NCBI RefSeq assembly: GCF_001677475.2
Contig: NZ_CP015229.1
DNA from: Escherichia coli
Lineage (GTDB): Bacteria > Pseudomonadota > Gammaproteobacteria > Enterobacterales > Enterobacteriaceae
Direction: 5' to 3' (one strand)
Length of the DNA stretch: 64,000 nt
A program made the position numbers and the translations under genes. Numbering within the stretch: position 1 is the stretch's first letter; every line of letters begins with the position of its first letter. Positions 1,827 through 48,805 of this stretch are shown here, in pieces. The notes under the pieces were generated by a model, which searched no databases, was not told the origin of the DNA, and saw nothing but the letters and a program-made list of their open reading frames with translations.

Positions 1827-1868
1827 TCGCCCACCTCTCAGCAACCACTCTGAACAATAAATTCAGTA

Positions 1869-3314: not shown

Positions 3315-5437
3315 TTTTCTGCGTCCTCTTGTTTTTTCTTAGCGTTTAACCATCGCTGTTTTTCTTCACGGCCAGGCAAAAGCAGAATATTACTGGATGA
3401 AGGAAGTACAGGTTCATTTTTTTCATTAGGCAGATTTGTACGCCCTAATAGGTCCAGTTCAGCTTTTCTGTTCCGCCTGATATCTTTACCATGCACCCGG
3501 CGGGGATCAGAAATATCGTTCAGGCGTTCAATACCTTGCCTGTTGATTTTATCCTTAACTTTACTATTGTTAAAAACATTCAGTGTGAATGCATTTATTT
3601 CTTTTTGCGTATCTACCCAGTCGGCCATAACATCTGTATCAAGATGAGCTTTACCTTTAAATACATCTCTTTTTTTGAGTAGATAATGCTTTCTGAAGAC
3701 ACTATTTTTATCGAATCTTACGTACAAATAATCTACGCAATTATCATCAATTCTTGCTTCACAGGAGGTTCGTCCGAATACTCTTGCTGCTGAAGCAATG
3801 TCAGGATCGCATTCATAAAATAAATTATTATACTGAATTCCACCGGCTGTAATATTTGCTGTCACGGGGATTAACAAACGAGCAATGACTTCATCTGCTG
3901 TAACGACTCTTCCGCTGAACCGTCCTTGCTTTACGCTAATCATCCAGCTGTTTTTTGGCGAAATAATGAGATCATGTTCAATCAACAATGGATTAATATA
4001 AGCCAACTCCTCATACGTTCTTTGATTATGTGCAAGGATTTCCCGAATCAGCACTGAGGTGACCTCCTGAATCGTTAAACAGGCTCTGGATTGCGGTGTT
4101 GGTTCTCCTTTAACAATTTTGCCTCTTCGCGTTGCTCCTGTAAGCTCATGAATAGCTTCATCATTTAAAATCCCGAAACAACGCTCAACAATACTCTTTC
4201 TGTCCCCTCTGCCAACCGGTGCAAACTCAAGTTTAGTCAGAGGAGTCATCTTATCTTGAGGTTTAAGACCAATCATCTCTCCATTATCGCACATAAGTGT
4301 TAATGGTATATGAGAACAAGGCCATTCATCTTCATTAATAGAAACACCAAATATTCTACAGTATTCTTTTTTTGGCATAAAGCAATTTGCCAACGCTTGC
4401 CGGGCCGCTCGCCAGGAAGCATGATACAAAGAAACATGAAGACCAACAATCATCCTTGAAGCACGATCCACTACTGTATAAATAGTTGGTCGGCCAATAA
4501 CTTTACGCCTGTTTAAGCTTGAAACAAGGTGCACATCAGCTACAGTTGAGTCTATTTCAAAAACATCACCCGGCAATACGGTCGTATTAGCGGCACTCCC
4601 CAGAAGGCCACGCATCTTGAGGGCTATTTCTTTTTTAGAGTTTTTCTTATTTATAGAGAACTCTTTTGAAAACAACTTTCTATTCCAGTAAGTAAATTGT
4701 TTTAAAGAAGGAATGTAGGGAGCCCTGTTTTCAGCGTTTGCTTTCTTTATTTCATCCTTGAAATATAATTCAATGTGTCTTACCAGCGTTTTCTTTATCG
4801 TTTCCCCATGAGTTTTGTAATGAAACCTAGTTAGGGACTTTTTGATGTTTTCAATATCCCCTTCATTAAGGATATAAACTTTCGAACGTATATTGGGTAA
4901 TACTCTGTTTTTCTTTGCATTCCCGAGCTTAACTTCATGTCTGATTCTACTCTTACCTGCAGCACCGCAGTTCGGGTATGCGGGTAGCAAAGCATATATA
5001 TCCTGTCCATGTTTCCAGTAAAGAGTTAGAAGCGTCCTGATTGTACGTTGTGGGATTTGTTTTTTTCTGGAGTACTCTGTTAACAAATGTGATTTTTTAT
5101 GAATCGCATAATCAAATACGAATATTTTATCCTCTACAAGTTCTTTAATAATCTTATAGTTTACATCCCGTCGCTTTCTGTCTTCATTATTTATTTTTCT
5201 CTCATCAATCAACATATATGATGGGGGTGTATATTTCTTATGGGTTATTCTTTGCGAGTCCACACCATATGTAAATTGTGAAAGTGAGAATGGAATTGGT
5301 TTACTCGTTCTTTCTTTTTTTATTTCAAATAAAATCAACAAATCGGTATCTCTGTCAAAATCCAGAACGCGATAAAGCCCATCAGATAGCACGTCACTGT
5401 CGTGAGATTGCCATACTGAATTTCTAATAATATCCAT
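3311..5437 (-). CDS. tnsB: Tn7-like transposase TnsB (DDE/RNase H-fold)
   Basis: 708 aa; core similar to Tn7 TnsB (IGRPTIYTVVDRASRMIVG vs IGRPTLYIVIDVFSRMITG); overlaps tnsA 3' end by 14 nt. Confidence 0.9.
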   Translation of the reverse strand: MDIIRNSVWQSHDSDVLSDGLYRVLDFDRDTDLLILFEIKKERTSKPIPFSLSQFTYGVDSQRITHKKYTPPSYMLIDERKINNEDRKRRDVNYKIIKELVEDKIFVFDYAIHKKSHLLTEYSRKKQIPQRTIRTLLTLYWKHGQDIYALLPAYPNCGAAGKSRIRHEVKLGNAKKNRVLPNIRSKVYILNEGDIENIKKSLTRFHYKTHGETIKKTLVRHIELYFKDEIKKANAENRAPYIPSLKQFTYWNRKLFSKEFSINKKNSKKEIALKMRGLLGSAANTTVLPGDVFEIDSTVADVHLVSSLNRRKVIGRPTIYTVVDRASRMIVGLHVSLYHASWRAARQALANCFMPKKEYCRIFGVSINEDEWPCSHIPLTLMCDNGEMIGLKPQDKMTPLTKLEFAPVGRGDRKSIVERCFGILNDEAIHELTGATRRGKIVKGEPTPQSRACLTIQEVTSVLIREILAHNQRTYEELAYINPLLIEHDLIISPKNSWMISVKQGRFSGRVVTADEVIARLLIPVTANITAGGIQYNNLFYECDPDIASAARVFGRTSCEARIDDNCVDYLYVRFDKNSVFRKHYLLKKRDVFKGKAHLDTDVMADWVDTQKEINAFTLNVFNNSKVKDKINRQGIERLNDISDPRRVHGKDIRRNRKAELDLLGRTNLPNEKNEPVLPSSSNILLLPGREEKQRWLNAKKKQEDAEK

Positions 5438-6266
5438 TTGCGTTCAGCCCTATGCAGTAACCATTGGAAATTATTTTTATCAGACCTGTTTCGAGAATTG
5501 GATAAGATAGATCCACATTTATCATTTTTAACCCAATAATTGCCTGCAATAACATGATTGCTTCTTGTTCATCGACATCAAAGATTGATGAGATCATCGC
5601 GCGTAGTTCCACAATCGGATAAACATCCGGCTTAAGCCTCCATAAAATTTTATCAAGCGGATATTTATCAAAAAACTCAGACCCATTTCTCAGCACCGAG
5701 GTAGCCCAACATATGTTCTGCCCCGTGACATGATTCAGTTCCGAACCAGTATAGATTTGGAACTCAACATCAATCAGTTGCCAAAACATTCTCTCTATCT
5801 CAAGCTTTTCTGCTTCGCGTTTAGGTATGCTTTCGTTTTGCTTTACTGCAATTGCTTTATACCGAAGCCCCCCTCCCGGCATTCTCAGGGTCAGCAAGAA
5901 ATCAGTTGTCATAACATTCAGGACATCGGCTGGTACGCCTCTGACTCCCCTGACAAGCGGGTGCTGCACATCTAAGTGATTGGCTATCTGATGGGTGAGC
6001 AGTAGAGGTATGAGTGGGAATTGTTCGCGGATATCGATCACCAAGTCATTAAACTCAGCCAAGTAGAAAAAGTTACTTTCGACAGAAGAAAAGAAATGGT
6101 GATTCCGAAACGTCTTAAGGCCAAAGACTATCGAACGGTTTCCATGGGATCTAACGTCCTGAGCTCTAAGCCAGGGTTGATAACTTTGCCCATAGCCCAA
6201 CCCTATGCCGTCACCTAGCGCATTTTCATAATCCTGATAGGATTTAAGACGCCTGCCCCTAGCCAT
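5424..6266 (-). CDS. tnsA: Tn7-like transposase subunit TnsA (endonuclease-like)
   Basis: Matches Tn7 TnsA (YQPWLRAQDV...IDIREQFPLIP; KLEIERMFWQ). ATG at 6266 gives the same N-terminal length as Tn7 TnsA; the ORF-track start at 6278 is a GTG. Confidence 0.9.
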   Translation of the reverse strand: MARGRRLKSYQDYENALGDGIGLGYGQSYQPWLRAQDVRSHGNRSIVFGLKTFRNHHFFSSVESNFFYLAEFNDLVIDIREQFPLIPLLLTHQIANHLDVQHPLVRGVRGVPADVLNVMTTDFLLTLRMPGGGLRYKAIAVKQNESIPKREAEKLEIERMFWQLIDVEFQIYTGSELNHVTGQNICWATSVLRNGSEFFDKYPLDKILWRLKPDVYPIVELRAMISSIFDVDEQEAIMLLQAIIGLKMINVDLSYPILETGLIKIISNGYCIGLNANGYY

Positions 6267-6278
6267 GATCGTACCCAC

Positions 6279-18088: not shown

Positions 18089-18171
18089 TTAGATGATGGC
18101 TATCTCACTCCAGCCAGAGCCACCAACTCTGGGCTGAAGAGTAAAAAAACCGACGCAAAGTCGGTTTTTTT
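18089..18171 (+). ncRNA. agrA: agrA-like antisense sRNA (repeat unit 2 of the gor-arsR region)
   Basis: ~80-nt unit ending in a CCGACGCAAAGTCGG hairpin plus T7 on the + strand; shares the TCTCACTCCAGCCAGAGCC motif with the dinQ leader. 5' end not determined. Confidence 0.4.
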
Positions 18172-18323
18172 ACGTCCGGATTCGGACAAAGCTTGGTACG
18201 GCAGCGACCCGATGAAAGTATATAAATCCTCTTTCACCAACATGTATAGCAAACTGTCCCTTCTCCAGCTGAAGAAATCGCTAATTCTTGCAATGTTAGC
18301 CACTGGCTAATAGTATTGAACTG

Positions 18324-18405
18324 TTAGATAAGAGCTCTCTCACTCCAGCCAGAGCCACCAACTCTGGGCTGGAAAGTAAAAAACCGACGCAAAGTCGGTT
18401 TTTTT
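18324..18405 (+). ncRNA. agrB: agrB-like antisense sRNA (repeat unit 3)
   Basis: Near-identical copy of the unit at 18089..18171 with the same intrinsic terminator. 5' end not determined. Confidence 0.4.
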
Positions 18406-18557
18406 ACGTCCTGATTCAGACCTCCTTTCAAATGAATAGCCAACTCAAAATTCACACCTATTACCTTCCTCTGCACATACACATTCGTTAAGTCATATAT
18501 GTTTTTGACTTATCCGCTTCGCAGAGAGACACTACCTGCAGCAATCAGGAGCGCAAT

Positions 18558-20692: not shown

Positions 20693-20712
20693 CTAAAGGG
20701 GGATATGCCCCC

Positions 20713-21033
20713 TTATTTGTTCTCCGCGGCTCCTTCGCCATTTGTTTTGCTATTTACGCAGCACTCCTCGCGTAAGAATTCAATTATCGCTTCCAGCATT
20801 GCGTATTGCGAAACACACATCAGCGTCCGACTCTCACGGTTTTGTTTGACCAGTCCTACCGATACCAGTGCTGATATATGGTGGCTGAGTGTGGAGCCAG
20901 GTATCCCAAGCTGCTTTTGCAACTCACCGACCGGCAACCCTTGTTCCCCAGCTTTGACAAGATGTTTAAATATGAACAAACGGGTCGGGTGACCTAGCTC
21001 TTTCAGCGCTTTAGCAACTTCTTCCAACTGCAT
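20713..21033 (-). CDS. ArsR/SmtB-family metalloregulator (second copy, non-K-12)
   Basis: 106 aa; winged-HTH core (LGHPTRLFIFKHL...PGSTLSHHISALVSVGLV); C-terminal vicinal Cys pair (REECCVN) rather than the ELCVC site. Confidence 0.8.
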   Translation of the reverse strand: MQLEEVAKALKELGHPTRLFIFKHLVKAGEQGLPVGELQKQLGIPGSTLSHHISALVSVGLVKQNRESRTLMCVSQYAMLEAIIEFLREECCVNSKTNGEGAAENK

Positions 21034-21140
21034 ATGACACCCCCTTTGTCTGGTTGATATTTCGATAATACCAGAAATATCTTGATCTGAATTTTATTTC
21101 GATTATTCTGGAAATATAGATTTATTCACTGAGGTTACGT

Positions 21141-22142
21141 ATGAGTAGTTGGCTTGCGATGCTGCAAGATGCCGCAGAGATGTTTGTGTTTCTCGCCGTC
21201 GAGCTTTCTTTGCTGTTTATAGTGATTAGTGCCGGTGTCAGCCTGATAAGACAAAAGGTGCCAGACCATAAAATCCAGCAGATGATGGGGGCCAGAAAAG
21301 GGAGAGGCTATCTCCTGGCTGCTCTGTTGGGAGCCGTTACCCCGTTCTGTAGTTGCTCGACAATCCCCATGTTACGTGGATTGTTATCAGCGAAAGCCGG
21401 GTTTGGTCCGACTCTCACTTTTTTATTTGTTTCCCCATTACTTAATCCCATTATCGTCGGGTTAATGTGGGTGACCTTTGGCTGGAAAGTTACCTTGTTG
21501 TACGCGATTATCGCCGCCGGCGTCTCCGTACTTGCCAGTATTATCCTGGATTCTCTGGGATTTGAACGTCATATCATTGCCAGTAAAAGCTCATCAGCAA
21601 ATTGTTGTGCTCAAGCCAAAACTTCGCCGGGGACGACATATACGCCAATAAAAGTGAGTTGCTGTAGTCCAGCGGCTAAAGCCATTGAGAAACCCGTAGT
21701 TACCTGTTGCAGTACCAAAGCTGTGGTAAGTATTAATCCCATAAAACTAGCCACCAAAGATGCGTTGCAACAGTTTAAAGATGTACTGCCATATCTTTTG
21801 TTGGGGGTATTAATAGGCTCTTTTATTTATGGCTTTATTCCCTCAGAGTGGATTGCCGCTCATGCAGGGGCAGATAATCCCTTCGCCATCCCATTGAGCG
21901 CCGTTGTCGGTATTCCGCTGTATATCCGGGCAGAGGCGGTTATCCCTCTGGCATCTGTTCTGATGACAAAAGGAATGGGTCTGGGAGCATTAATGGCATT
22001 AATCATCGGCAGTGCCGGAGCAAGCCTGACGGAAGTGATATTACTTAAATCAATGTTCAGAATGCCGATGATAGCTGCATTCCTGACGGTTATCTTAGGT
22101 ATGGCTATCTTGATGGGCTATTTGACTCAAATGCTATTTTAA
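21141..22142 (+). CDS. arsP: ArsP-like permease (putative organoarsenical efflux; DUF318 family)
   Basis: 333 aa polytopic membrane protein with TPFCSCSTIP motif (the ArsP signature as recalled); central loop with three Cys-Cys dyads. Confidence 0.65.
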   Translation: MSSWLAMLQDAAEMFVFLAVELSLLFIVISAGVSLIRQKVPDHKIQQMMGARKGRGYLLAALLGAVTPFCSCSTIPMLRGLLSAKAGFGPTLTFLFVSPLLNPIIVGLMWVTFGWKVTLLYAIIAAGVSVLASIILDSLGFERHIIASKSSSANCCAQAKTSPGTTYTPIKVSCCSPAAKAIEKPVVTCCSTKAVVSINPIKLATKDALQQFKDVLPYLLLGVLIGSFIYGFIPSEWIAAHAGADNPFAIPLSAVVGIPLYIRAEAVIPLASVLMTKGMGLGALMALIIGSAGASLTEVILLKSMFRMPMIAAFLTVILGMAILMGYLTQMLF

Positions 22143-22720: not shown

Positions 22721-23944
22721 ATGTCAATTGACTTTACCCCAGGTATAATAAATATTTATCACGGCGATATTTATAACTGCACAACAAATACCGATAATGC
22801 TAAAACGCCAGACACACCGAAGTGGCCTTGCGATAATTGGGAAGAACAACAACCCATTAATTCCACATTCTCTGGAGAAGGATATACCTCTGATCAATAT
22901 GATTTAGCGCAACACCAACTTCAACAAATTTATGCGTGCCGCACGAACACCACATATACAAATGCAGACTACTCCAAAGTTGTGGCTCAACTTGTAAGTC
23001 TTATTACTAACATTGAAACGATAAGTTCGACACCACTTACGCGGCAGGCACAGGGACTACTTAATCAAATTAATAACATTAGATACGAAAAGAACAAAAG
23101 TGCTGAATGTCGAATCATTGTTGTCGCTAATCCTAAACCCGACAAGGCAATCATAACTAAAATTAGCGTAGAAGAGGGAATCCCCATAACATTCAGTGTC
23201 CAAACCATGTTTTCAGATACTAATTTTATTGCTGAACAACGAGCTGACTTACCAACTAATATAAAAGATATTCAAAGCCTGTATCAAAAAATGACGAAGT
23301 TATATATTGCGCACAGTGAAAATAAAAACAGGATGAAAGTCTTTGCCGGAACCAACTTTATTGATTTCAATATGACAGGACAGAACCTGTCCGGGTTCGT
23401 TCTAACCTTGTCAAGGTTTTATTTCGAAGATCTACTTAATATAAATTTCACTGACGCAAATTTAGGTGACACTATTTTTTCACATAAAGAACACCCTACC
23501 CCCAAATTATATAAAGATGGACAATATCTTGACAAACAAATCGAAGGTTTATTTTCAACATTATTAACCATTAATGACAACTTTTTACGAGCAAAAGCGG
23601 AAATTGCTTCGACAATAATTAAATTTTTAGAGACCAGGATAACCAATCTTTCATACAACGACATATTAAAATATCAGCAAGAATTCAAAAAAGAATGTTA
23701 TAAGCAAGTTAAAGCCTTTACGACACTCTCTCGATACAATAAAATTCAAACATGGGCAGAAATGTCTGAATATCAATTCGAAGTATTTCAATACGAGACG
23801 CTTAACCCAAAAAAAATGTCACACACGCCTTATTTAAAGAGGCCACTTCCTAATGAAAAAGATATAAATTATGGGGTGGAAATAGAAATACCATCTGGCA
23901 AAAGAATTCGCTTATCAAATCATTATCAGAATATAATACCATAA
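22721..23944 (+). CDS. yhiS: YhiS-like protein, intact (407 aa), function unknown
   Basis: AT-rich ORF with AAGGA RBS at the K-12 yhiS position; no IS interruption. Confidence 0.7.
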
Positions 23945-25443: not shown

Positions 25444-25503
25444 ACGATTGATCAATATAAAGAGGCCCAGCAATAAATAGCCAGACCTCCCGTTAATTAT
25501 ACG

Positions 25504-26532
25504 TTATGCAGTAACGCCTTCCGGTATCAGCGAAGCAATTTGCTTACGCCATTGCGCTTGCTCCTGTTCGCCTTCTGTACGTTGACCATAAAGTTGCGCT
25601 ATCTGCGTACCATCATGGGCAAACAATTCCAGACTGGTTACGTAGCCATCGCTGGTCGGTTTACGGGTAACCCAGGCTTCAGCAATGCTCTCTTCTAATA
25701 GATGAAGAGTAAACGTCGGGTTGAAAATATTCAGCCAACCTTTCATTGGCACCACTTTTTCTACCACACCCGTGAAAATCTGTACGCAGCCACGGTTGCC
25801 AACAAACACCATGATTTCATTGCCATCCTGCTGTGCAGATTCCAGAATCTGCGCCAGCGCACTACCAGATACTTTGCAGGCCAAATCGTCTGCCACCAGA
25901 TTGAACGCCTGTTGGCGCGTCAGATTGTGGCGCTTTAGCAACGTAAAAAACTGATGAACGTCGGTCATCGCCCGCCACTCTTGCTCGACCACAGTGGCAT
26001 CGGCTCGCGTTTGAACAACTGGCGCATCAACGGCTTTTAACTCAAGCGGCGTATTCTCATCGGTGATAAACCGTGCCAGAAGCTCATTCCATGCCGCCAT
26101 ATCGGTATTGTCGGTAGCATAAACTTTCAGTAATGCATCGCCCTGATGATCAAAGAACTGAATACTCTGACGTTCACCGCGAGCCGTGTTTTCTTTTATA
26201 TGGAAAACACTGGCCCACTGATTCAGAAACAGTCGCAAATCCAGCGCGCGCGGGTTGAGTATTAATCCGGCATGACCGTTCAAATGCTGGTTTGTGAACG
26301 AGCCAACTTGCTCATGGACTGCATATTCATTACGACAAATACATTTGGTTTCACCAACGCTTTCCAGCGCCGCCAGAATTTCACGGATATCGCCGCGCAT
26401 CCGCCACGCATCGTGCGTGACGCGTGCAAATGCCAGTTCTGCTTCGCTAATATTCATTAAACCTGCGATGTCACGCGCGTACTTTCCGGGATTTTGTTCT
26501 TTTAACTCAAGCCAGCGTGTGTAGTGGTTCAT
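25504..26532 (-). CDS. chuS: Haem-degrading/utilisation protein ChuS (HemS family)
   Basis: 342 aa, MNHYTRWLELKEQNPGKYARDIAGL... Confidence 0.9.
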   Translation of the reverse strand: MNHYTRWLELKEQNPGKYARDIAGLMNISEAELAFARVTHDAWRMRGDIREILAALESVGETKCICRNEYAVHEQVGSFTNQHLNGHAGLILNPRALDLRLFLNQWASVFHIKENTARGERQSIQFFDHQGDALLKVYATDNTDMAAWNELLARFITDENTPLELKAVDAPVVQTRADATVVEQEWRAMTDVHQFFTLLKRHNLTRQQAFNLVADDLACKVSGSALAQILESAQQDGNEIMVFVGNRGCVQIFTGVVEKVVPMKGWLNIFNPTFTLHLLEESIAEAWVTRKPTSDGYVTSLELFAHDGTQIAQLYGQRTEGEQEQAQWRKQIASLIPEGVTA

Positions 26533-26580
26533 TGTCTCTCTTCCTTCCAGATAAATGCCCCGAAATATCGGGGCAGATGA

Positions 26581-28563
26581 TTACCATTGATAACTCACGA
26601 AAATTTTTCCATTACGACCATCCTGTGGGATGCCTTGTGGCGACCAGTACTCTTTGTCGAAAGCGTTACCCAACACTAAAGTAGTGGTCATACCTTTGAG
26701 CGCCTGTTGTCCTTGATAACTGACGTAGAAATCATTCACGCCATAGCCTGGTTGTTTGCTGTAACTGCTGCTGATATGTGTTGAGCGATCGGCAAACGTA
26801 CCAACCCACCCAACAGAGAAGCCACTGTGAGCGATCGGAATATTCAGGGTGCTGGTAACGGTATCCGGGTTAATACTGGAGATATATTCGCCGGTATCGG
26901 TGTCTTTGCCGCGGGTACGGTTATAGGCCACATCAAGGCTAAACAGATCAGTGGTATATTTCGTCATCACATCCCAGCCCCAGATTTTGGCGTTCGGGAC
27001 GTTATACGACATAGTTGTCGCCGCCGCGAAATCGACGGTCGTGGAGATGTAATCCTTCGCTTTGGTATCAAAGTAGCTGGCTTTAAATTCCAGAGCATCA
27101 TTGGACAACATCAGATCATCAAAACGCAGCCCAAAACCGTACTCCTGAGTTTCGTTAGTTTCCGGACGTAAGTTCGGGTTTGGCACCCAATAGTTGGTAT
27201 AGAAGCGACCAATCGAGAAGTGCTTAGAATCGTTATACATTTCGCCCATCGTCGGGGCGCGGAATGCCTGGGCATATGAGCCAAATAACATCAGCCAGTT
27301 AGTCGGGTTGATAGTCATCCCCGCGCGAGATGACCATTTGTCGGCATCAACATCTTTGTAGCCGTCGCTGCTACCGCGATAACTGTCATAGCGGGTTCCG
27401 CCAAGCAGGGTAATCGGCAGATCGCGTAAGGTGATCTCATCCTGTAGCCAGCCGGAGCTAAAATCGATTTTTGCTTGCGGGAAGCCTGTCGTCGCGCCGC
27501 CCGGATGTTGTTCCTGACGATAATACTCACCGCCATATGTCAGTAAGTGAGAAGCGAAACTGTCGGCAAATAGAGTGGAACGGTTCTCCAGCCTGGCTCC
27601 TTTTGTTATCTGTTCACGATACTCGCCGGAACTCCCCGTGTTTTGCGCATTAATACGGACTTCCGACCAATAAATTTTTGCATCTGCATTTAACCAGTCG
27701 TTGCTCTGCGGGGCGAGTTTATAAGAAAGCTGCGCATCGCGTTGAATTGTTGAACGATCAACCATCGGATTGCTGCTTTCAGAAGCTTCAACGGTCTGCG
27801 GATTTTTTGGTTCACGCGCGTCGTTGTTGTAGTAACGCACTAAACCGCTCAGAGACTGGGCTGAATCAATTTGCCAGGTCCCCTTCGCCAGCATGTTATT
27901 AATGGACTCGTCATTCGGCGCGGTTTCACCATTGCTCTGGCGTAAATCACCCCGATCGCGACTGGACCAGGCCACAATACCATCCAGATTTTCAGTTCGC
28001 CCAAACGCGCTCGCGCCTAATCCCAGGCTATGGTCCCCCGTGCCGCCAGTACCAAAGACACGAAAACCACTGCTTTGTCCTTCCTGCAATAAATCTTTTG
28101 CATCGACCGTATCGTAGGAGATCACTCCACCCAGCGCGCCACTGCCATACAGTAATGCTGAAGGTCCACGAACAATCTCAACACGCTTGATCAGCGCCGG
28201 ATCGAGAAAAGTGCCATTCAGGTGTCCGGTATCCGTTCCCTGACGAACACCATCGACAAGAACCAGCACGCCGCGATGATCATAGCCACGCATATTTACA
28301 TCCTGACCGTTGGTTCGTCCGGTACCATCCAGAGTAATTCCAGGAACATGACGCAGCAGATCGGAGGCTGAAGTAGCCGTTTGATTTTCAGGAGCGGAAG
28401 TGTCGATGACGCTGACCATCATAGGCGCTTCGAAGGAACTACGGGCATTCCCCGTTGCCGTAACGGTTATGGTTTCAGTAGCAAAAGCAAACGTTGGCAA
28501 GGTGGCAGAAACAGCCAAAGCCAACAAACTCAAACGCAACGAGGTAAATTGCGGACGTGACAT
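26581..28563 (-). CDS. chuA: TonB-dependent outer-membrane haem receptor ChuA
   Basis: 660 aa; signal peptide, TonB box ETITVTA, C-terminal aromatic residue typical of a beta-barrel. Confidence 0.9.
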   Translation of the reverse strand: MSRPQFTSLRLSLLALAVSATLPTFAFATETITVTATGNARSSFEAPMMVSVIDTSAPENQTATSASDLLRHVPGITLDGTGRTNGQDVNMRGYDHRGVLVLVDGVRQGTDTGHLNGTFLDPALIKRVEIVRGPSALLYGSGALGGVISYDTVDAKDLLQEGQSSGFRVFGTGGTGDHSLGLGASAFGRTENLDGIVAWSSRDRGDLRQSNGETAPNDESINNMLAKGTWQIDSAQSLSGLVRYYNNDAREPKNPQTVEASESSNPMVDRSTIQRDAQLSYKLAPQSNDWLNADAKIYWSEVRINAQNTGSSGEYREQITKGARLENRSTLFADSFASHLLTYGGEYYRQEQHPGGATTGFPQAKIDFSSGWLQDEITLRDLPITLLGGTRYDSYRGSSDGYKDVDADKWSSRAGMTINPTNWLMLFGSYAQAFRAPTMGEMYNDSKHFSIGRFYTNYWVPNPNLRPETNETQEYGFGLRFDDLMLSNDALEFKASYFDTKAKDYISTTVDFAAATTMSYNVPNAKIWGWDVMTKYTTDLFSLDVAYNRTRGKDTDTGEYISSINPDTVTSTLNIPIAHSGFSVGWVGTFADRSTHISSSYSKQPGYGVNDFYVSYQGQQALKGMTTTLVLGNAFDKEYWSPQGIPQDGRNGKIFVSYQW

Positions 28564-28852
28564 AGCGATTCTCCATGAGGAAAATAAAAAATGCTGGCTG
28601 CCTGGGTTAATACCGGGGTGGCTGGCGAAAAATAAATTTATTTAAAATTCAGAGCGATAATATTCGCCGGGTGAATTTACAGGCGTTTATATCCCATGAA
28701 ATTGCCTGGTATCTCGGCAAATACGCAAAAGCACGCCCTCTTTGTCAGGCAAAACGATATGCCCCATCAGGAGTGAAGAGCGCTGTGCGTTATCCCTTGC
28801 AAATGCTATGGTTTTGTTATCCATATGGTCGTGATTTGTTAAGCTCAAACAT

Positions 28853-28871
28853 GATAATGAGAATTATTATC
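28853..28871. promoter_or_regulatory. Fur box in the chuA / chuT divergent promoter region
   Basis: GATAATGAGAATTATTATC vs consensus GATAATGATAATCATTATC. Confidence 0.5.
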
Positions 28872-29202
28872 GATCAATTTTTTATGATCAAGCTTTTTTT
28901 TAACCACCATTAACACAATAAACAGGGGGTTATGAAACCTATCCTGCGCCCTGTAAACCACCATGTTTTTATGGTTATTCCCCCATGCCTCATCACTAAA
29001 CTTTGTCGTTAACAGTGATAATTTTCTCTTCTCTTTGCTCTGCAAGCCTCGATATCTCTGGGTTCTCAGCTTTTTCCCGCGATGAAATTTAGTCGGTAAC
29101 AAGAACGTTAGCTGACGAAGCATCTTGATAAAAATCAAAAATAAATACGCTTGTAACGCCTTGCGTATTGAATCGACGGTTGTATTTCATATATAACTCA
29201 AA

Positions 29203-29223
29203 TGATAATCATGATCATTCTCA
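29203..29223. promoter_or_regulatory. Fur-box-like site upstream of chuT
   Basis: TGATAATCATGATCATTCTCA about 25 nt upstream of the chuT ATG. Confidence 0.45.
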
Positions 29224-29245
29224 ATTTGATAAGAGTTCTCATATT

Positions 29246-30160
29246 ATGCCAAGGATCATCACCAGGCCGTTTCTTTTTTCCCCACTGACGTTATGTATTT
29301 CAGCCGTGGCCTCTGCCGCGAAGACCGCGGTAAAACGAAAAAAATTGTTTACGGCAGTACTGGCTCTTAGCTGGGCTTTTAGCGTAACGGCTGCCGAACG
29401 TATCGTGGTCGCAGGAGGATCGCTGACGGAGCTAATCTACGCGATGGGCGCTGGCGAACGCGTGGTTGGTGTCGATGAAACGACATCTTATCCACCAGAA
29501 ACCGCCAAACTGCCGCATATTGGCTACTGGAAACAACTCAGCAGCGAAGGCATTTTGTCACTTCGCCCGGATAGCGTAATTACCTGGCAGGATGCTGGAC
29601 CGCAAATTGTGCTCGACCAACTACGGGCGCAGAAAGTCAACGTCGTTACCCTGCCGCGTGTGCCTGCCACCCTTGAGCAGATGTACGCCAACATTCGCCA
29701 ACTGGCAAAAACGTTACAGGTTCCTGAACAAGGGGACGCGCTGGTGACACAGATCAACCAACGCCTGGAGCGAGTACAGCAAAACGTGGCAGCCAAAAAA
29801 GCCCCGGTTAAAGCCATGTTTATTCTCTCCGCAGGCGGAAGTGCGCCACAAGTTGCCGGTAAAGGCAGCGTCGCGGACGCCATTCTTTCGCTTGCCGGAG
29901 CAGAAAACGTCGCTACCCACCAGCAGTACAAAAGCTACAGTGCAGAATCACTGATTGCGGCTAACCCTGAAGTGATTGTCGTAACCTCACAAATGGTCGA
30001 TGGCGATATTAATCGGCTACGTTCTATTGCCGGAATTACCCACACTGCCGCATGGAAAAACCAGCGCATTATCACCGTTGATCAAAACCTGATTCTGGGA
30101 ATGGGTCCGCGTATTGCTGATGTCGTTGAGTCTTTACACCAGCAGCTTTGGCCGCAATAA
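29246..30160 (+). CDS. chuT: Periplasmic haem-binding protein ChuT
   Basis: 304 aa from ATG 29246; the longer ORF-track start would lie inside the Fur box; signal peptide present. Confidence 0.85.
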   Translation: MPRIITRPFLFSPLTLCISAVASAAKTAVKRKKLFTAVLALSWAFSVTAAERIVVAGGSLTELIYAMGAGERVVGVDETTSYPPETAKLPHIGYWKQLSSEGILSLRPDSVITWQDAGPQIVLDQLRAQKVNVVTLPRVPATLEQMYANIRQLAKTLQVPEQGDALVTQINQRLERVQQNVAAKKAPVKAMFILSAGGSAPQVAGKGSVADAILSLAGAENVATHQQYKSYSAESLIAANPEVIVVTSQMVDGDINRLRSIAGITHTAAWKNQRIITVDQNLILGMGPRIADVVESLHQQLWPQ

Positions 30161-30179
30161 ATGGATTTAAATCAGACGA

Positions 30180-31517
30180 ATGAACGCAAATAACACCCTG
30201 GATCTCACGCCACATTTTGCTTTAGACGGTGATCAGCCATTTAAAGACAGGCGCGCCATGATGCCGTTTCGTGGAGCCATTCCAGTTGCCAAAGAGCAAC
30301 TGGCACAGACCTGGCAAGAGATGATCAATCAAACGGTATCACCACGTAAGCGACTGGTTTATCTACACATTCCTTTTTGTGCAACACACTGCACGTTTTG
30401 TGGTTTTTATCAGAACCGTTTTAATGAAGATGCGTGTGCTCATTATACCGACGCCCTGATTCGTGAAATAGAAATGGAAGCGGACAGCGTATTGCATCAG
30501 TCTGCCCCCATCCACGCGGTCTATTTCGGTGGCGGCACGCCTTCCGCGCTTTCGGCACACGATTTGGCCAGAATTATCACCACATTACGAGAAAAGCTGC
30601 CACTGGCCCCTGATTGTGAAATCACTATCGAAGGCCGGGTACTGAATTTTGACGCTGAGCGGATCGATGCTTGCCTTGATGCAGGAGCAAACCGCTTCTC
30701 AATTGGTATTCAGTCGTTTAACAGCAAAATCCGCAAGAAAATGGCCCGCACCTCGGATGGCCCAACCGCCATTGCGTTTATGGAAAGCCTGGTCAAACGC
30801 GACCGTGCAGCGGTGGTCTGTGACCTACTGTTTGGCCTGCCGGGTCAGGATGCGCAAACCTGGGGAGAAGATCTGGCTATTGCCCGCGATATCGGTCTCG
30901 ACGGCGTCGATCTTTATGCGCTCAATGTCCTGCCCAATACACCGCTGGGCAAAGCCGTGGAAAATGGGCGTACTACCGTGCCCTCTCCGGCAGAACGTCG
31001 CGATCTTTATCTGCAAGGGTGTGACTTCATGGACGAAGCCGGTTGGCGCTGTATTAGTAACAGCCACTGGGGCCGTACCACACGCGAACGCAATCTCTAC
31101 AACCTGCTGATTAAACAAGGTGCCGATTGTCTGGCCTTTGGTTCCGGAGCCGGCGGTTCGATTAATGGTTACTCCTGGATGAACGAACGCAATCTTCAGA
31201 CCTGGCATGAATCCGTCGCGGCAGGCAAAAAACCGCTGATGATGATCATGCGTAACGCCGAACGTAATGCGCAATGGCGTCATACCTTGCAGTCAGGTGT
31301 TGAAACAGCGCGTGTACCGCTGGATGAACTTACGCCACATGCCGAAAAACTCGCGCCGTTACTGGCTCAATGGCACCAAAAAGGCTTAAGCCGCGATGCG
31401 TCAACTTGCCTGCGGCTGACTAATGAAGGTCGTTTCTGGGCAAGCAATATTTTGCAGTCTCTTAATGAACTAATTCAGGCACTTAATGCGCCAGCGATTG
31501 TGCGTGAAAAACCATAA
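30180..31517 (+). CDS. chuW: Radical-SAM anaerobic haem-degrading enzyme ChuW (HemN-like)
   Basis: 445 aa; CxxxCxxC radical-SAM motif (CATHCTFCGF). Confidence 0.9.
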   Translation: MNANNTLDLTPHFALDGDQPFKDRRAMMPFRGAIPVAKEQLAQTWQEMINQTVSPRKRLVYLHIPFCATHCTFCGFYQNRFNEDACAHYTDALIREIEMEADSVLHQSAPIHAVYFGGGTPSALSAHDLARIITTLREKLPLAPDCEITIEGRVLNFDAERIDACLDAGANRFSIGIQSFNSKIRKKMARTSDGPTAIAFMESLVKRDRAAVVCDLLFGLPGQDAQTWGEDLAIARDIGLDGVDLYALNVLPNTPLGKAVENGRTTVPSPAERRDLYLQGCDFMDEAGWRCISNSHWGRTTRERNLYNLLIKQGADCLAFGSGAGGSINGYSWMNERNLQTWHESVAAGKKPLMMIMRNAERNAQWRHTLQSGVETARVPLDELTPHAEKLAPLLAQWHQKGLSRDASTCLRLTNEGRFWASNILQSLNELIQALNAPAIVREKP

Positions 31518-31529
31518 CAGGAGTGATTT

Positions 31530-32024
31530 ATGAGCCATGTCTCGTTACAAGAATTTTTGAAAACGGAGCCGGACGGTACGCTGGAGGTGGTAGCCGAACA
31601 ATACAACACCACACTGCTGGAGGTAGTGAGAAATCTACCCTCCTCTACCGTAGTGCCAGGCGATAAATTCGATACTGTCTGGGATACCGTCTGCGAATGG
31701 GGCAACGTCACCACGTTAGTACATACTGCCGATGTAATCCTCGAATTTAGCGGCGAACTGCCTTCGGGTTTCCACCGCCACGGCTATTTCAACCTACGCG
31801 GAAAGCACGGCATGTCCGGGCATATCAAAGCAGAAAACTGCACGCATATTGCCTTGATCGAACGTAAATTTATGGGCATGGACACCGCCTCTATTCTCTT
31901 TTTCAATAAGGAAGGCAGCGCCATGCTGAAAATCTTCCTCGGCAGGGATGACCATCGTCAGCTCCTGAGCGAACAAGTCAACGCCTTCCATGCTCTGGCG
32001 GCATCGTTAAAGGAACACGCCTGA
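31530..32024 (+). CDS. chuX: Haem-binding protein ChuX
   Basis: 164 aa; position and size in the chu operon. Confidence 0.85.
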   Translation: MSHVSLQEFLKTEPDGTLEVVAEQYNTTLLEVVRNLPSSTVVPGDKFDTVWDTVCEWGNVTTLVHTADVILEFSGELPSGFHRHGYFNLRGKHGMSGHIKAENCTHIALIERKFMGMDTASILFFNKEGSAMLKIFLGRDDHRQLLSEQVNAFHALAASLKEHA

Positions 32025-32647
32025 TGACGCCGTGGCTACTCTTTGGCGCAGGCGGAAAAGGTGTGGGTGCCAGAACGCTTGAACTGGCGCTGGCGGAACA
32101 ACGTCCGGTCGTTGCTGTCATTCGTCATGCCGATGCCGCCACGAAACTGACGCAACAAGGCGTACAGGTTTTTACAGGCGACGCCTGTGATGCCAGCGTA
32201 GTAGCGGCTGCTTGCCGCGCAGCTGGCCCGGATGCGCTTATCATCTCAACAATGGGAGGAGCTCAGGATTATCTGGCGCACAGAACAGTGATTGATGAGG
32301 CCGAAAAGGCCGGCATCAGTCGCATGATTCTGGTGACCTCTTTGGGATGCGGCGATAGCTGGCCGTTTTTATCGGAGCGGGCAAAGGCTGCGTTTGGTCA
32401 GGCGGTACGGGAAAAAACGCTGGCGGAAAGCTGGTTGCAAACCAGCCAGCTTGATTACGCCATTCTCCGCCCTGGCGGTCTGCTTGATGGGGCGGCAACG
32501 GGCAAAGCACAACGGATACAAAATCAGGAGTGTCATGGTTTTGTTCACCGTGCCGATGTCGCCGCACATATCCATAAACTGGCAAATGCGCCAGCACTTA
32601 ACCAGCAGGTCTACAGTCTGATTGAACCGGACCTGAAACCGGCGTGA
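32024..32647 (+). CDS. chuY: ChuY (NAD(P)H-dependent reductase-like)
   Basis: 207 aa; start overlaps the chuX stop; Rossmann-like N-terminus. Confidence 0.85.
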   Translation: MTPWLLFGAGGKGVGARTLELALAEQRPVVAVIRHADAATKLTQQGVQVFTGDACDASVVAAACRAAGPDALIISTMGGAQDYLAHRTVIDEAEKAGISRMILVTSLGCGDSWPFLSERAKAAFGQAVREKTLAESWLQTSQLDYAILRPGGLLDGAATGKAQRIQNQECHGFVHRADVAAHIHKLANAPALNQQVYSLIEPDLKPA

Positions 32648-32695
32648 TCCCCCGGCGCGGCATGTCCGCGCCGTAATGTCGTAACGGAGTTTTGC

Positions 32696-33688
32696 GTGCT
32701 CAAGGATTCACTCTCTTCCGCCAGGATCTTTATGGGGCTATCACTATTATTGCTAGCTCTGATGCTGTTCGGTGCCAGTCAGGGAGCGTTAAAGATCAGT
32801 TTTGATGCCCTTTTTGATGAGGAATACCGCGATATCTGGCTCAATATTCGTCTACCACGGGTTTTGCTGGCGGTGCTGGTAGGTGCAGCGTTGGCAACCG
32901 CAGGGGTAATTATGCAGGGGCTTTTTCGCAACCCAATGGCTGACCCTGGATTACTCGGCGTCAGTAGCGGTTCTGCATTAATGGTTGGCGTTGCTATTGT
33001 GCTGCCCTTCTCCTTCCCAGTGGTGCTGGTGCTCTATGAGCAAATGATGTTTGCCATTGCCGGAAGTTTAGTGGTCTGCACCATCATTTTTCTCATCACG
33101 CAGCGCCATCGCGATGGCAGCATGATGCAATTGTTACTCGCCGGTATCGCCATCAATGCCCTGTGCGGCGCAGCGATCGGCATCCTGAGCTATATCGGCG
33201 ATGAGCAGCAGCTACGACAACTCACATTGTGGATGATGGGCAATCTTGGACAGGCGCAATGGCCGACGTTATTGGTTGCCAGTTCATTCATCCTACCGGC
33301 CATTATCGCAACAACTTGTCTCGCCGGAACGCTGAATTTACTGCAGCTCGGTGATGAAGAAGCCCACTACCTCGGCGTGAACGTTAAGCGTAAACGCCAG
33401 CAATTACTGTTAGTGAGCTCACTGCTCGTTGGTGCTGCCGTATCGGTAAGCGGCATTATCGGCTTTATTGGCCTGGTGATCCCGCATCTGATTCGCATGA
33501 CTACCGGGGCAAATCACCGCTGGCTAATCCCTTGTTCCGCCCTCGCCGGAGCCTGTTTATTGCTGATGGCAGACACGCTTGCCCGCACGCTGGTACAGCC
33601 AGCAGAAATGCCCGTGGGATTATTAACCAGCCTGCTTGGTGGCCCTTATTTTATGTGGTTGATTCTGCGCAACCGGAGGATCACATGA
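32696..33688 (+). CDS. chuU: Haem ABC transporter permease ChuU
   Basis: 330 aa FecCD-family permease; GTG start with GGAG RBS. Confidence 0.85.
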
Positions 33689-34455
33689 TCAGCGCCCAGA
33701 ATCTGGTTTATAGCCTTCAGGGGCGGCGTCTGACTGACAATGTCTCGCTGACTTTTCCCGGTGGGGAAATTGTTGCCATTCTCGGCCCTAATGGTGCGGG
33801 AAAATCTACGCTGCTTCGCCAGTTAACCGGCTATCTTCAACCTGATAGCGGCGAATGTCGGTTGTTTAATAAGCCATTAAATGAATGGTCGATTACTGAA
33901 CTGGCGAAACACCGGGCCGTGATGCGTCAAAATAGCCACATGGCGTTTCCATTCAGCGTACAAGAAGTTATCCAGATGGGGCGGCATCCGCATCGTACTG
34001 GTAATCAGGATAATGAAACAGCACAAATAATGGCGTTATGTGACTGTCAGGCGTTAGCAAACCGCGACTATCGGCAATTATCCGGTGGTGAACAACAGCG
34101 CGTGCAATTAGCGCGCCTGCTGGTGCAACTCTGGGAACCTACTCCCTCACCGAAATGGTTATTTCTTGATGAACCAACTTCGGCGCTGGATATTCACCAT
34201 CAGCAGCACTTGTTCCGTTTATTACGCCAGTTAGTTCACGAACGGCAGTTCAATGTTTGCTGCGTATTGCACGATCTAAATCTTGCCGCACGTTATGCAG
34301 ACCGTATTGTATTAATGCAAAAAGGAAAGGTTATCGCAAATGGTAAACCGCAGGATGTATTGACACAGCAGGCGCTGACAATGCTCTACGGCGCGGATAT
34401 TACCGTACTTAAAGATCCTGCCAACCATTCACCACTGATCGTCCTCGATCATTAA
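33685..34455 (+). CDS. chuV: Haem ABC transporter ATPase ChuV/HmuV
   Basis: 256 aa from ATG overlapping the chuU stop (ATGA); Walker [10 protein letters not shown]; LSGGEQQR signature. Confidence 0.85.
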
Positions 34456-34506
34456 AAGCAACAGGAGTACCGCACTGGTACTCCTGCGAATAAATAACTA
34501 TACAGA

Positions 34507-38145: not shown

Positions 38146-38483
38146 TCAGGACATAAGCAACTGAAATTGATGGCTGGCATGACGAGGGATGCAGATGCTG
38201 ATTTCATTACCCCCGGTGATTACTAAAGGAGAGGTTAAAACGACTTTATTCCCCTGGTATGTGTATCCACCAGTAGAACCCTTCGTTGCCCGAATGCTGG
38301 CAGGAACTGTTGGCAGAACGGCAACATTTTTTTTGTCGTTGACCTCACCATGTCGATCACTATGCCTGTATCCCACCTTACTGGCTGACAACCCCACTAT
38401 GCCGCTGGTCTGTAAATCCCTCATATCTCTCCTCGCGCGCAATTTAAAGAACCGTTATTTCTCAAGAATTTTCAGGGACTAAA

Positions 38484-43870: not shown

Positions 43871-44116
43871 GACTATCCCTTATATTTCATTACTGCGATT
43901 ATTTCAATTTCAGTATACTAATGAAATGATGCCAGACTGTTTCTTCGTGCAAAAACTGCCATATTTGGTAGGACCAAAATTTATCCACAAAGTAGTTTTG
44001 CATAACATTTAATTGATAATAAGTAAATGCAACACGAATATATTTTCACACGGCGTATAGCTTATGTTTATAAAAAAATGGCTGATCTTATTTCCAGTAA
44101 AAGTTATATTTAACTT

Positions 44117-44222
44117 ACTGAGAGCACAAAGTTTCCCGTGCCAACAGGGAGTGTTATAACGGTTTATTAGTCTGGAGACGGCAGACTATCCTCTTCCCGG
44201 TCCCCTATGCCGGGTTTTTTTT
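44117..44222 (+). ncRNA. gadY: GadY small RNA (antisense to the gadX 3' end)
   Basis: ACTGAGAGCACAAAGTTTCCC...CCGGTCCCCTATGCCGGG + T8 matches the recalled gadY; intrinsic terminator on + strand. Confidence 0.6.
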
Positions 44223-44238
44223 ATCTCTGAGTAAAACT

Positions 44239-47033: not shown

Positions 47034-48431
47034 TTATTGTTTATCCTGCATATACGGCGTGTAAACCCCGTTCAGACTGTGCAGGAAAGCTACGATATCA
47101 TCCACATCCTCCTGCGGCAGCTCTTTGCCTACCTGATAGCGCAACATCAGTTTCACCGCCCCGTCCAGCGTCGGCACATCACCGCGATGGAAGTACGGTG
47201 CCGTTAGTGCAACGTTACGTAAACCGGGTACTTTCTGACGCAATTTATCGCGCTCTTCTTTAGTAACATTCATACGACCAATATCCGCCGCCGTAATTTC
47301 ACCAAAGTTAAAGTCTTTTTTCAGCCCCAACGGTTCGAAGGAACGTCCGCCGAGAATAATACCACCATGACAAGTTGCACATTTATTATCTTTAAATAAT
47401 TGATAACCTTTTTTCTGTTGTGCCGTCAGCGCATTCTCATCTCCACGCAACCATTTATCAAATGGGGAATCCGGCGTAATTAATGTTTTCTCAAATTCAG
47501 CAATGGCATCAGTAATATTTTCGCCACTGAAACCTTGCGGATAGACTTCAAGGAACTGCGCTTTAAGCTGCGGATCTTTTTCCAGCTTAGCAATAATTTC
47601 GTCCCAGGATTTCGACGCCATTTCAATCGGATTCAACGGCGGTCCACCAGCCTGATCCTGCAATGTTGCCGCACGACCATCCCAGAACTGCTCAACGTTA
47701 AATACTGAGTTAAATACCGTCGGCGCGTTAATCGGCCCCACTGCGCCACCAACACCAATCGATGTTTTTCTGCCATCGACGCCCCCCGCATTCAACGCAT
47801 GGCAATGAGCGCATGAAATGGTGCTATCAGCCGATAAACGGGGATCGTGATACAGCGCAAAGCCCAACGCCACTTTTTGCGCATCGGTAGGCAGTTTTTG
47901 CGGGATGGGCTGCACCGGTTCATTGCGATGCTCCGGAGCAGTGTCATTACTGGCGTAATATTCCGCGCGCTGTTTTGCAATCCAGGCCAGTATTTCCGCC
48001 CGCTCTTCATCACTCACCTTACCCGCCCAGTGTAGCGCGGTATAACGCGTTGGTGGCATAGTTTCATACTGCATCACCCATTCAATCTTATTCAGATCGC
48101 TTTGCGAAACGGGTTTATCAGCCAACAGAGCCGCACGCACGGCCTCAAGATTAAAAGATTTATATCCGAGCTTAATGTCGTAATCCATCAACTGTTTCGC
48201 GCCAGGAATATAATAATAGGCGGGTAATTCTGCCGAAGGCGTATGGCAATAGTCGCATCCCTTTTCGCGGAGAAAGCCTAAAACCTTATTATTTTCACTG
48301 ACAGCAGATGCCTGAACATCGGCCTGTTTACTGCGTTTATTATCGTGGTACCACACATAACCAGATAACCCTAAATAGCAAATCGCGACGCCAGCCAGGC
48401 CGATCGCGGTAATACGTGAGACCATTTTCAT
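47034..48431 (-). CDS. yhjA: Cytochrome c peroxidase YhjA (Ccp)
   Basis: 465 aa; three CxxCH haem motifs (CDYCH, CAHCH, CATCH). Confidence 0.9.
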   Translation of the reverse strand: MKMVSRITAIGLAGVAICYLGLSGYVWYHDNKRSKQADVQASAVSENNKVLGFLREKGCDYCHTPSAELPAYYYIPGAKQLMDYDIKLGYKSFNLEAVRAALLADKPVSQSDLNKIEWVMQYETMPPTRYTALHWAGKVSDEERAEILAWIAKQRAEYYASNDTAPEHRNEPVQPIPQKLPTDAQKVALGFALYHDPRLSADSTISCAHCHALNAGGVDGRKTSIGVGGAVGPINAPTVFNSVFNVEQFWDGRAATLQDQAGGPPLNPIEMASKSWDEIIAKLEKDPQLKAQFLEVYPQGFSGENITDAIAEFEKTLITPDSPFDKWLRGDENALTAQQKKGYQLFKDNKCATCHGGIILGGRSFEPLGLKKDFNFGEITAADIGRMNVTKEERDKLRQKVPGLRNVALTAPYFHRGDVPTLDGAVKLMLRYQVGKELPQEDVDDIVAFLHSLNGVYTPYMQDKQ

Positions 48432-48805
48432 TATTCTTCCCTCACGGTGGTGAGTTATTGTGACCCAGAAAATTTTCCAGAATGCTGCAAACGTCTCTGC
48501 GAGACAAAGCCATCATAAAAAACAGGGAGATACGCTTTTTGATAGGAATCAATCAATTACATGAATATAAACTATCAATAAGATAGCCTGTGCCTATTAC
48601 CCAGATCAGGAATGGCATATCATGATTGCGGCGAGAGCAGGATTGAATGTTCTGAAAATGAAAAACAACACGAAATCTGTATTTTTATAAATTCCATTGA
48701 TATTAGTGCGTTATATTTTTTGATAAGTTAATAAACGTGATCCACCGCACGCTTTGTCGCCCACCAGGCGGAGCGAATGACTACCCTTAAAGAAAAGCCC
48801 GATAA

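Follow-up and report, generated by a model that had tools for sequence, protein, structure and literature searches.

What separates dctR from yhiD in this Escherichia coli chromosome, how are its genes controlled, and where did they come from? The segment in question occupies positions 25504-34455 of a stretch of 64,000 nucleotides from contig NZ_CP015229.1, analysed at its full length and hereafter called the window. Taken as a whole, it is very probably the chromosomal chu locus for haem (shu in Shigella), organized as two divergent units repressed by Fur. This gene cluster and its two Fur switches are already known and constitute a well-studied locus of haem uptake and haem degradation. An earlier note on this DNA had pointed to the same genes; as submitted, that finding only re-identifies a textbook locus and shows that the source strain belongs to a chuA-positive E. 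coli lineage, no more. The note omitted both RNA thermometers of the locus, the long leader of chuA, and an FNR-type box located upstream of chuT.

Gene content and the Fur-controlled promoters

The list of open reading frames (ORFs) includes eight intact genes in the segment, chuS and chuA on the minus strand and chuT, chuW, chuX, chuY, chuU and chuV on the plus strand. They have the expected length and lie exactly at the limits given in the earlier note, which had described chuS-chuA as divergent from chuT-W-X-Y-U-V. In the RefSeq annotation of the collinear E. coli XH990, the same eight genes are found between dctR and yhiD. Every product was assigned by NCBIfam and Pfam to the expected family, and the solved structures of ShuT, ChuA/ShuA and ChuS match the window proteins almost residue for residue. 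Alignment to the chu loci of O157 and of uropathogenic E. coli (UPEC) gave an identity of 97.9% to O157 and 96.7% to ST131. The present analysis established which genes these are and where they end, how rare and how conserved the boxes are, and the Rfam match of the thermometer; the start sites, Fur dependence and thermoregulation were taken from the literature on identical sequence.

Potential Fur-binding sites were identified by scanning the window with the 19-bp consensus GATAATGATAATCATTATC, allowing up to three mismatches, with the expectation taken from 100 shuffles. The consensus matches only at 28853-28871 (two mismatches) and 29204-29222 (three mismatches), compared with 0.04 expected matches, and no shuffle among the 100 reached the observed count. 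The best score outside these two loci is 14/19. The earlier note had placed Fur-box-like sites at 28853..28871 and 29203..29223, in a divergent promoter region of roughly 680 bp. Both sites are confirmed, the second being the box with one additional base on each side, and the intergenic region 28564-29245 is 682 bp long.

Both boxes are invariant in O157:H7, ST131 (B2), 33F4, XH990 and two Escherichia species about 91% identical to the window, and they are unchanged even where the adjoining intergenic sequence has diverged. A search for the chuT Fur box across genome contigs returned two relevant loci, both from other Escherichia species, and five chance matches. No Fur-like box before chuS or chuU reaches 14/19, in keeping with two Fur-controlled units.

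The positions of the two boxes agree with the mapped promoters. The 5' untranslated region (5'UTR) of chuA was determined as 291 nt in enterohaemorrhagic E. coli (EHEC) Sakai by differential RNA sequencing (dRNA-seq; PMC9002310). The leader aligns with that of O157 without indels, which puts the chuA start site at 28854, and Fur box 1 spans both this start site and the -10 hexamer. For shuT, rapid amplification of cDNA 5' ends (5'-RACE) defined a 42-nt leader, whose first 19 positions (+1 to +19) form a Fur site that has three mismatches and confers Fur- and iron-dependence (PMC5458455); this published site corresponds exactly to window positions 29204-29222. In strain CFT073, chromatin immunoprecipitation sequencing (ChIP-seq) of Fur identified chuAS and chuTWXYU as direct targets (PMC7157518). 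The suggestion in the earlier note that the divergent promoters are controlled by iron and Fur agrees with these published experiments (PMC9002310, PMC5458455, PMC7157518).

Both leaders carry additional regulatory signals. The FourU hairpin over the chuA Shine-Dalgarno (SD) sequence pairs UUUUCC with GGAGAA (-8.2 kcal/mol, z -2.37), and its function as a thermometer was demonstrated experimentally (PMC3660397). The chuA leader is also a target of Rho-dependent termination and of the small RNAs CyaR, ChiX, RyhB and Esr41, and chuS is a published target of FnrS, by which it is repressed (PMC9002310). The last ~105 nt before the chuA start codon are invariant, whereas the middle of the leader (28645-28850) is the fastest-evolving stretch of the locus, especially in comparison with B2: the 500-bp bin 28504-29001 contains 76 differences between B2 and the other lineages versus 3-27 in other bins. 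In the chuT leader, the computed fold pairs positions +14 to +18 (29217-29221) with AGAGU of the SD sequence. Its energy is no better than that of shuffled sequences (z -0.12), so the function as a thermometer is taken from the published mutagenesis (PMC5458455).

Some other features of the intergenic region were considered. Most of a block situated between 50 and 80 bp upstream of the chuA start site is conserved across Escherichia species, the sequence diverging past position 28933. Its core, TAAACAGGGGGTTA (28920-28933), is invariant, and we recognized no known motif in it. Two ORFs, one of 26 codons with a strong SD sequence (28933-29013) and one of 97 codons on the minus strand (28845-29138), were rejected, as both contain frameshifting indels and many non-synonymous changes in XH990 and B2. 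The match to Hammerhead_HH9 at 29299-29374 (20 bits versus a gathering score of 52) was attributed to chance.

A candidate FNR site upstream of chuT

Phylogenetic footprinting of the intergenic region uncovered a conserved block upstream of the chuT -35 hexamer that contains TTGATAAAAATCAA, a perfect match to the FNR consensus. Two exact copies of this consensus are present in the window, compared with 0.15 expected. The second copy, TTGATAGGAATCAA (48539-48552), is located 114 bp upstream of ccp/yhjA (47034-48431, minus strand). We take this gene to be FNR-activated and used its upstream copy as an internal positive control. The centre of the chuT box (29131.5) is at -72.5 relative to the start site at 29204, a position with an error of about 1 bp as this start site is transferred from the S. 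dysenteriae 5'-RACE (PMC5458455), and this fits the class I positions near -61.5, -71.5, -82.5 and -92.5.

In order to compare promoters, ChuW homologues and their loci were retrieved. In eight genera, an FNR-type box with zero or one mismatch precedes the Fur box by 76-80 bp: Escherichia, Citrobacter, Klebsiella (huaxiensis), Yokenella, an Intestinirhabdus-like genome, another member of Enterobacteriaceae, Limnobaculum and Paramixta. The spacing in the window is 79 bp. In the nine-sequence alignment, the islands of conservation are the FNR half-sites and the Fur core, and the N4 spacer and the upstream flank vary. All boxes have the form TTGA...TCAA typical of FNR, and none has the CRP-type form GTGA...TCAC. 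The upstream neighbour genes differ between the compared operons. Within E. coli, the box is invariant between the window and the O157 and UPEC chu loci.

On balance, these patterns favour a functional FNR site at 29125-29138. It is still quite possible that the box does not activate chuT, being a chance AT-rich palindrome, a site for another member of the CRP/FNR family, or an element acting on chuA. The published FNR effect in avian pathogenic E. coli (APEC) O1 was reported on chuA-lacZ, not on chuT (PMC5481319). The reporter fragment in that study corresponds to window positions 28484-28801, so that the box is outside it; the FNR site published for chuA of APEC O1, TTGTAATGTTTCAA, has no match in the chu region of the window, nor in that of EC958, when up to three mismatches are allowed. 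A role at chuA is difficult to reconcile with the distance, as the box precedes the chuA start site by 277.5 bp, more than ordinary activation would span, and the genera with unidirectional operons have no divergent chuA-like gene, their upstream neighbours being different. Also against these alternatives, the half-sites are invariant across eight genera, in contrast to the variable N4 spacer and upstream flank, and TGA is always preceded by T, as in FNR-type sites.

Three observations weigh against FNR control of the chuT promoter. The chuT start site, and with it the -72.5 position, comes from S. dysenteriae. Two more distant loci, Pectobacterium hutWXY and the W-side promoter of Leminorella, have no comparable FNR box. 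Finally, the published shuT promoter fragment, which as described starts 26 nt upstream of the -35 hexamer (about 29142) and thus excludes the box, is active aerobically (PMC5458455); for this reason, FNR would modulate the chuT promoter and would not be required for its activity.

FNR is not mentioned in a 2025 review of haem systems in bacteria (PMC12670364), and we found neither the FNR box nor the unusual start of ChuT discussed below described in the searchable literature. That the box has remained unnoticed would be explained by its absence from the reporter constructs published for shuT and chuA. The regulatory logic is attractive because ChuW is an oxygen-sensitive radical-SAM (S-adenosylmethionine) enzyme and FnrS already represses the oxygen-requiring ChuS. 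If true, FNR oxygen sensing would be wired directly into the operon for haem transport and anaerobic haem degradation, which would account for the way in which facultative anaerobes in the gut select ChuS or ChuW. We consider the box a modest lead worth a short experiment, not an established finding.

Probable origin of the locus and its proposed assembly from two modules

Homology with E. coli K-12 MG1655 extends as far as the stop codon of dctR (25443) and begins again with that of yhiD (34507). The description of the locus as replacing the dctR-yhiD junction of K-12 is therefore right in a descriptive sense. It does not lie directly against the acid-fitness island, as the earlier note had it. 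This island extends from slp to gadA (PMC9144400, Table 2) and includes both dctR and yhiD, so that chu is situated inside it, between two of its member genes, an arrangement already described for EDL933-like strains (PMC10562709).

Escherichia probably had the chu locus ancestrally, and the K-12 lineage lost it. The competing scenario, a recent pathogenicity island inserted into a K-12-like dctR-yhiD junction, is consistent with the fact that K-12 and 59% of the complete E. coli genomes lack the locus, and the literature often calls chu an inserted island (PMC10562709). However, the hallmarks of a mobile genomic or pathogenicity island are missing: the segment contains only the eight chu genes, with no integrase, transposase, insertion sequence (IS) element or transfer RNA (tRNA) gene, and its borders have no direct or inverted repeats of at least 9 bp. 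The G+C content of the chu coding stretches, 0.48-0.55, is normal for E. coli, in contrast to 0.32-0.44 in the flanking acid-fitness genes. The locus is always chromosomal and single-copy in the 2238 of 5426 complete E. coli genomes that carry it, and 2234 genomes match at least 80% of a 10-kb query that includes the dctR and yhiD flanks, with identity of 96.6-98.5%. An Escherichia genome only 91.7% identical has chu followed by the same yhiD-hde flank, and the divergence of chu between B2 and other lineages, about 3.4%, resembles that of core genes. Taken together, these observations make a recent insertion improbable and argue for ancient residence with loss in the K-12 lineage. The 41-bp K-12 spacer contains no recognizable chu remnant, its best local alignment scores being within the range of shuffled sequences. 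The same genome counts limit the view of chu as a trait of pathogenic E. coli: it holds as a lineage marker, and a strict pathogen trait it is not.

The chuT gene points to an older history. Residues 1-29 of ChuT are 55% identical over 29 aa to the N-terminal signal peptide of the Citrobacter receptor, and residues 32-304 are 80% identical to the Citrobacter T protein, starting from the second residue of the latter. ChuT is thus predicted to begin with two tandem signal peptides, since its first part matches that of the receptor and the remainder matches the T protein; the crystallized ShuT chain starts at residue 49. The promoter, leader and start codon of chuT align with those of the receptor gene in other genera. 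These data are most simply explained by an in-frame deletion of about 2 kb that removed the ancestral receptor gene in Escherichia, where a separate chuA-chuS unit of the HemR/HemS type, which has a Fur promoter of its own and a long leader, would now be used. This fossil, which we regard as a lead and not as an established finding, pictures how the Escherichia locus arose from two older modules.

As far as can be judged from sequence comparison, the chances are about even that the chuT promoter is an ancestral dual-input module shared across Enterobacterales, with FNR at about -72.5 and Fur at +1. Such a module would allow induction of the operon for the oxygen-sensitive haem degraders ChuW, ChuX and ChuY only under low-iron anoxic conditions. 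At the same time, the FNR-dependent FnrS would turn off the oxygen-requiring ChuS, giving a full oxygen switch between the two routes of haem degradation. In Escherichia, the promoter, its leader and about 29 signal-peptide codons, now fused to chuT, would be what remains of the deleted receptor gene.

That the two Fur boxes are instead one paired operator, where Fur oligomerises or loops and represses both promoters jointly, is very improbable: they share one 682-bp intergenic region, and Fur is generally known to polymerise along AT-rich DNA (discussed in PMC5458455), but their centres are separated by 351 bp, each box overlaps a promoter or start site of its own, the 42-nt shuT leader alone gives Fur regulation to a foreign promoter (PMC5458455), and a single box is present at the chuT-type promoter in other genera. 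The boxes, called paired in the earlier note, are two independent operators.

The locus very probably works as follows. The chuAS and chuTWXYUV units are each repressed by Fe2+-Fur at their own operator. The former is read from a sigma-70 promoter with Fur box 1 over the -10 hexamer and the start site (about 28854), and transcription of the latter starts at the first base of Fur box 2 (29204). Iron scarcity leads to transcription of both units. Temperature then gates translation of chuA and chuT, with leader hairpins hiding the SD sequence below 37 C, and the 291-nt chuA leader is also targeted by Rho and several small RNAs. Haem is imported by ChuA with energy from TonB, and ChuT hands it to the ATP-binding cassette (ABC) importer ChuUV. 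It is then degraded by ChuS with oxygen, or anaerobically by ChuW, ChuX and ChuY. Under anoxia, FNR bound at -72.5 might activate chuTWXYUV, which would complement the published repression of chuS by FnrS.

Table 1. Features of the chu segment, with positions in the window.
Feature	Position	Strand	Description	Support or detail
chuS	25504..26532	-	haem oxygenase / haem-degrading protein, 342 aa	Pfam HemS x2, 9.7e-83; PDB ChuS 4CDP/1U9T, E about 1e-229
chuA	26581..28563	-	TonB-dependent outer-membrane haem/haemoglobin receptor, 660 aa	TIGR01785 589 bits vs cutoff 317; PDB 9DIR/3FHH ShuA
chuT	29246..30160	+	periplasmic haem-binding protein, 304 aa	Pfam Peripla_BP_2; PDB ShuT 2R7A identical over residues 49-304
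chuW	30180..31517	+	radical-SAM anaerobic haem-degrading methyltransferase (ChuW/HutW)	TIGR04107 571 bits vs cutoff 400
chuX	31530..32024	+	cytosolic haem carrier (HutX)	TIGR04108 211 bits vs cutoff 110
chuY	32024..32647	+	anaerobilin reductase, NAD(P)H-binding fold	Pfam NAD_binding_10, 6e-37; RefSeq name
chuU	32696..33688	+	ABC permease	Pfam FecCD, 1.5e-95
chuV (hmuV)	33685..34455	+	haem ABC ATPase	NF010068 395 bits vs cutoff 261
Segment absent from K-12	25444..34506		whole chu segment	9,063 bp in place of the 41-bp K-12 dctR-yhiD spacer
Fur box 1	28853..28871		chuAS operator	GATAATGAGAATTATTATC, 17/19
Fur box 2	29198..29222		chuTWXYUV operator	core 29204-29222 GATAATCATGATCATTCTC, 16/19; overlapping 15/19 match 29198-29216
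chuA promoter	28863..28891	-	sigma-70 promoter	-35 TTGATC (28891-28886), -10 AATAAT (28868-28863); consistent with +1 at 28854
chuT promoter	29168..29197	+	promoter	-35 TTGAAT (29168-29173), -10 TATAAC (29192-29197); agrees with shuT promoter and start site (PMC5458455)
FNR consensus	29125..29138		candidate class I activator site	TTGAT-N4-ATCAA, perfect match; centred at -72.5 of the chuT promoter
Conserved block	28904..28933		50-80 bp upstream of the chuA start site	invariant core at 28920-28933
chuA 5'UTR	28564..28854	-	291 nt	start site transferred from EHEC dRNA-seq (PMC9002310)
FourU RNA thermometer	28561..28592	-	over the chuA SD sequence	Rfam RF02597 (shuA_thermo), 60.1 bits vs gathering score 58; identical to consensus
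chuT 5'UTR	29204..29245	+	42 nt, with published thermometer	U+15, U+16 pair with SD (PMC5458455)
First ~29 codons of chuT	29246..29332	+	putative fossil signal peptide of a deleted ancestral TonB-dependent receptor gene	
Hairpin between chuA and chuS	26556..26575	-	GC-rich hairpin	fold -16.3 kcal/mol, z -2.78
Hairpin between chuV and yhiD	34461..34487	-	terminator-like, 11-bp stem	T-run on yhiD side

The GC-rich hairpin between chuA and chuS could possibly serve as an attenuator or stabiliser in the bicistronic chuAS messenger RNA.

The island of the window is at most 98.5% identical, and its flanks at most 97.7-98.4% identical, to any complete RefSeq E. coli genome, and from this low best identity we conclude that the strain belongs to a sparsely sampled chuA-positive lineage. 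Proteins identical to its ChuA and ChuS are present in E. coli assemblies at NCBI. A large share of the private substitutions falls in chuS (25504-26503), which accounts for 28 of the 70 such changes found across the island; they may stem from a recombination tract or from divergence of the lineage. E. coli HH97 (NZ_CP116409.1 531304-533408) has a partial chu deletion and keeps only a chuY fragment, chuU and chuV (24% of the island).

The rest of the window contains several other features. Four minus-strand ORFs adjoining yhiN (273-6278) match a Tn7-like module (TnsD-family, ATP-binding protein, transposase, TnsA-like), and the 25-kb flank with this module is covered to at least 80% in only 243 of 5426 complete genomes. 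Genes of an ArsR/SmtB-family regulator and a permease are located at 20705-22142, between arsC and a yhiS-like ORF, as in JNEC-KY174; they are absent from the arsC-slp interval of XH990 and NT1F34. The yhiS-like ORF itself (22721-23944) is intact, has a low G+C content and encodes 407 aa; in K-12 it is interrupted by IS5, and other strains have a frameshift in it. Rfam matches above the gathering score include two AgrB-type antisense RNAs beside dinQ (18089-18173 and 18324-18407), the ES205 small RNA (38263-38334) and GadY (44114-44227), all of them expected K-12-like features. Megablast with the region 35001-60000 gave a median of 31 places in each genome of E. coli, so that this region contains a dispersed repeat.

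Comparison with known systems

The closest experimentally studied relative is the shu locus of S. dysenteriae. It has the same eight genes in the same order, an identical mature ShuT (PDB 2R7A) and an identical shuA thermometer (Rfam). The shuT Fur box occupies the same +1 to +19 positions of a 42-nt leader and has the same three mismatches (PMC5458455). No functional difference was found; the window ChuA is a few residues off the solved ChuA/ShuA sequences. A four-promoter prediction for shu (cited in PMC5458455) is not backed by Fur boxes before chuS or chuU here.

The chu loci of O157:H7 and UPEC occupy the same dctR-yhiD site (PMC10562709), and the Fur boxes, the FNR-type box and the last ~105 leader nucleotides are invariant between them and the window. 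The difference lies in the allele, which does not exceed the identity of 98.5% given above with any of the 5426 complete genomes.

The hemR-hemS / hmuRSTUV systems of Yersinia resemble the chuAS unit: ChuS matches HemS (E = 1e-150), and ChuA is a HemR-type receptor. Both the Yersinia hem/hmu systems and chu are regulated by Fur. The Yersinia operon is unidirectional and is not known to carry W/X/Y genes for anaerobic degradation.

The operons of Citrobacter, Klebsiella, Yokenella, Limnobaculum, Paramixta, the Intestinirhabdus-like genome and the other Enterobacteriaceae genome resemble the other unit. They differ from chu in being unidirectional (receptor-T-W-X-Y(-U-V)) and in starting with a receptor of 710-718 aa that is only about 29% identical to ChuA; none of these loci contains a chuS-like gene. 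Their T, W, X, Y, U and V genes are orthologous to those of the window, with ChuW 67-87% and T 74-80% identical, and the operons are preceded by a homologous promoter module, which is comprised of an FNR-type box, the -35 and -10 hexamers and then a Fur box.

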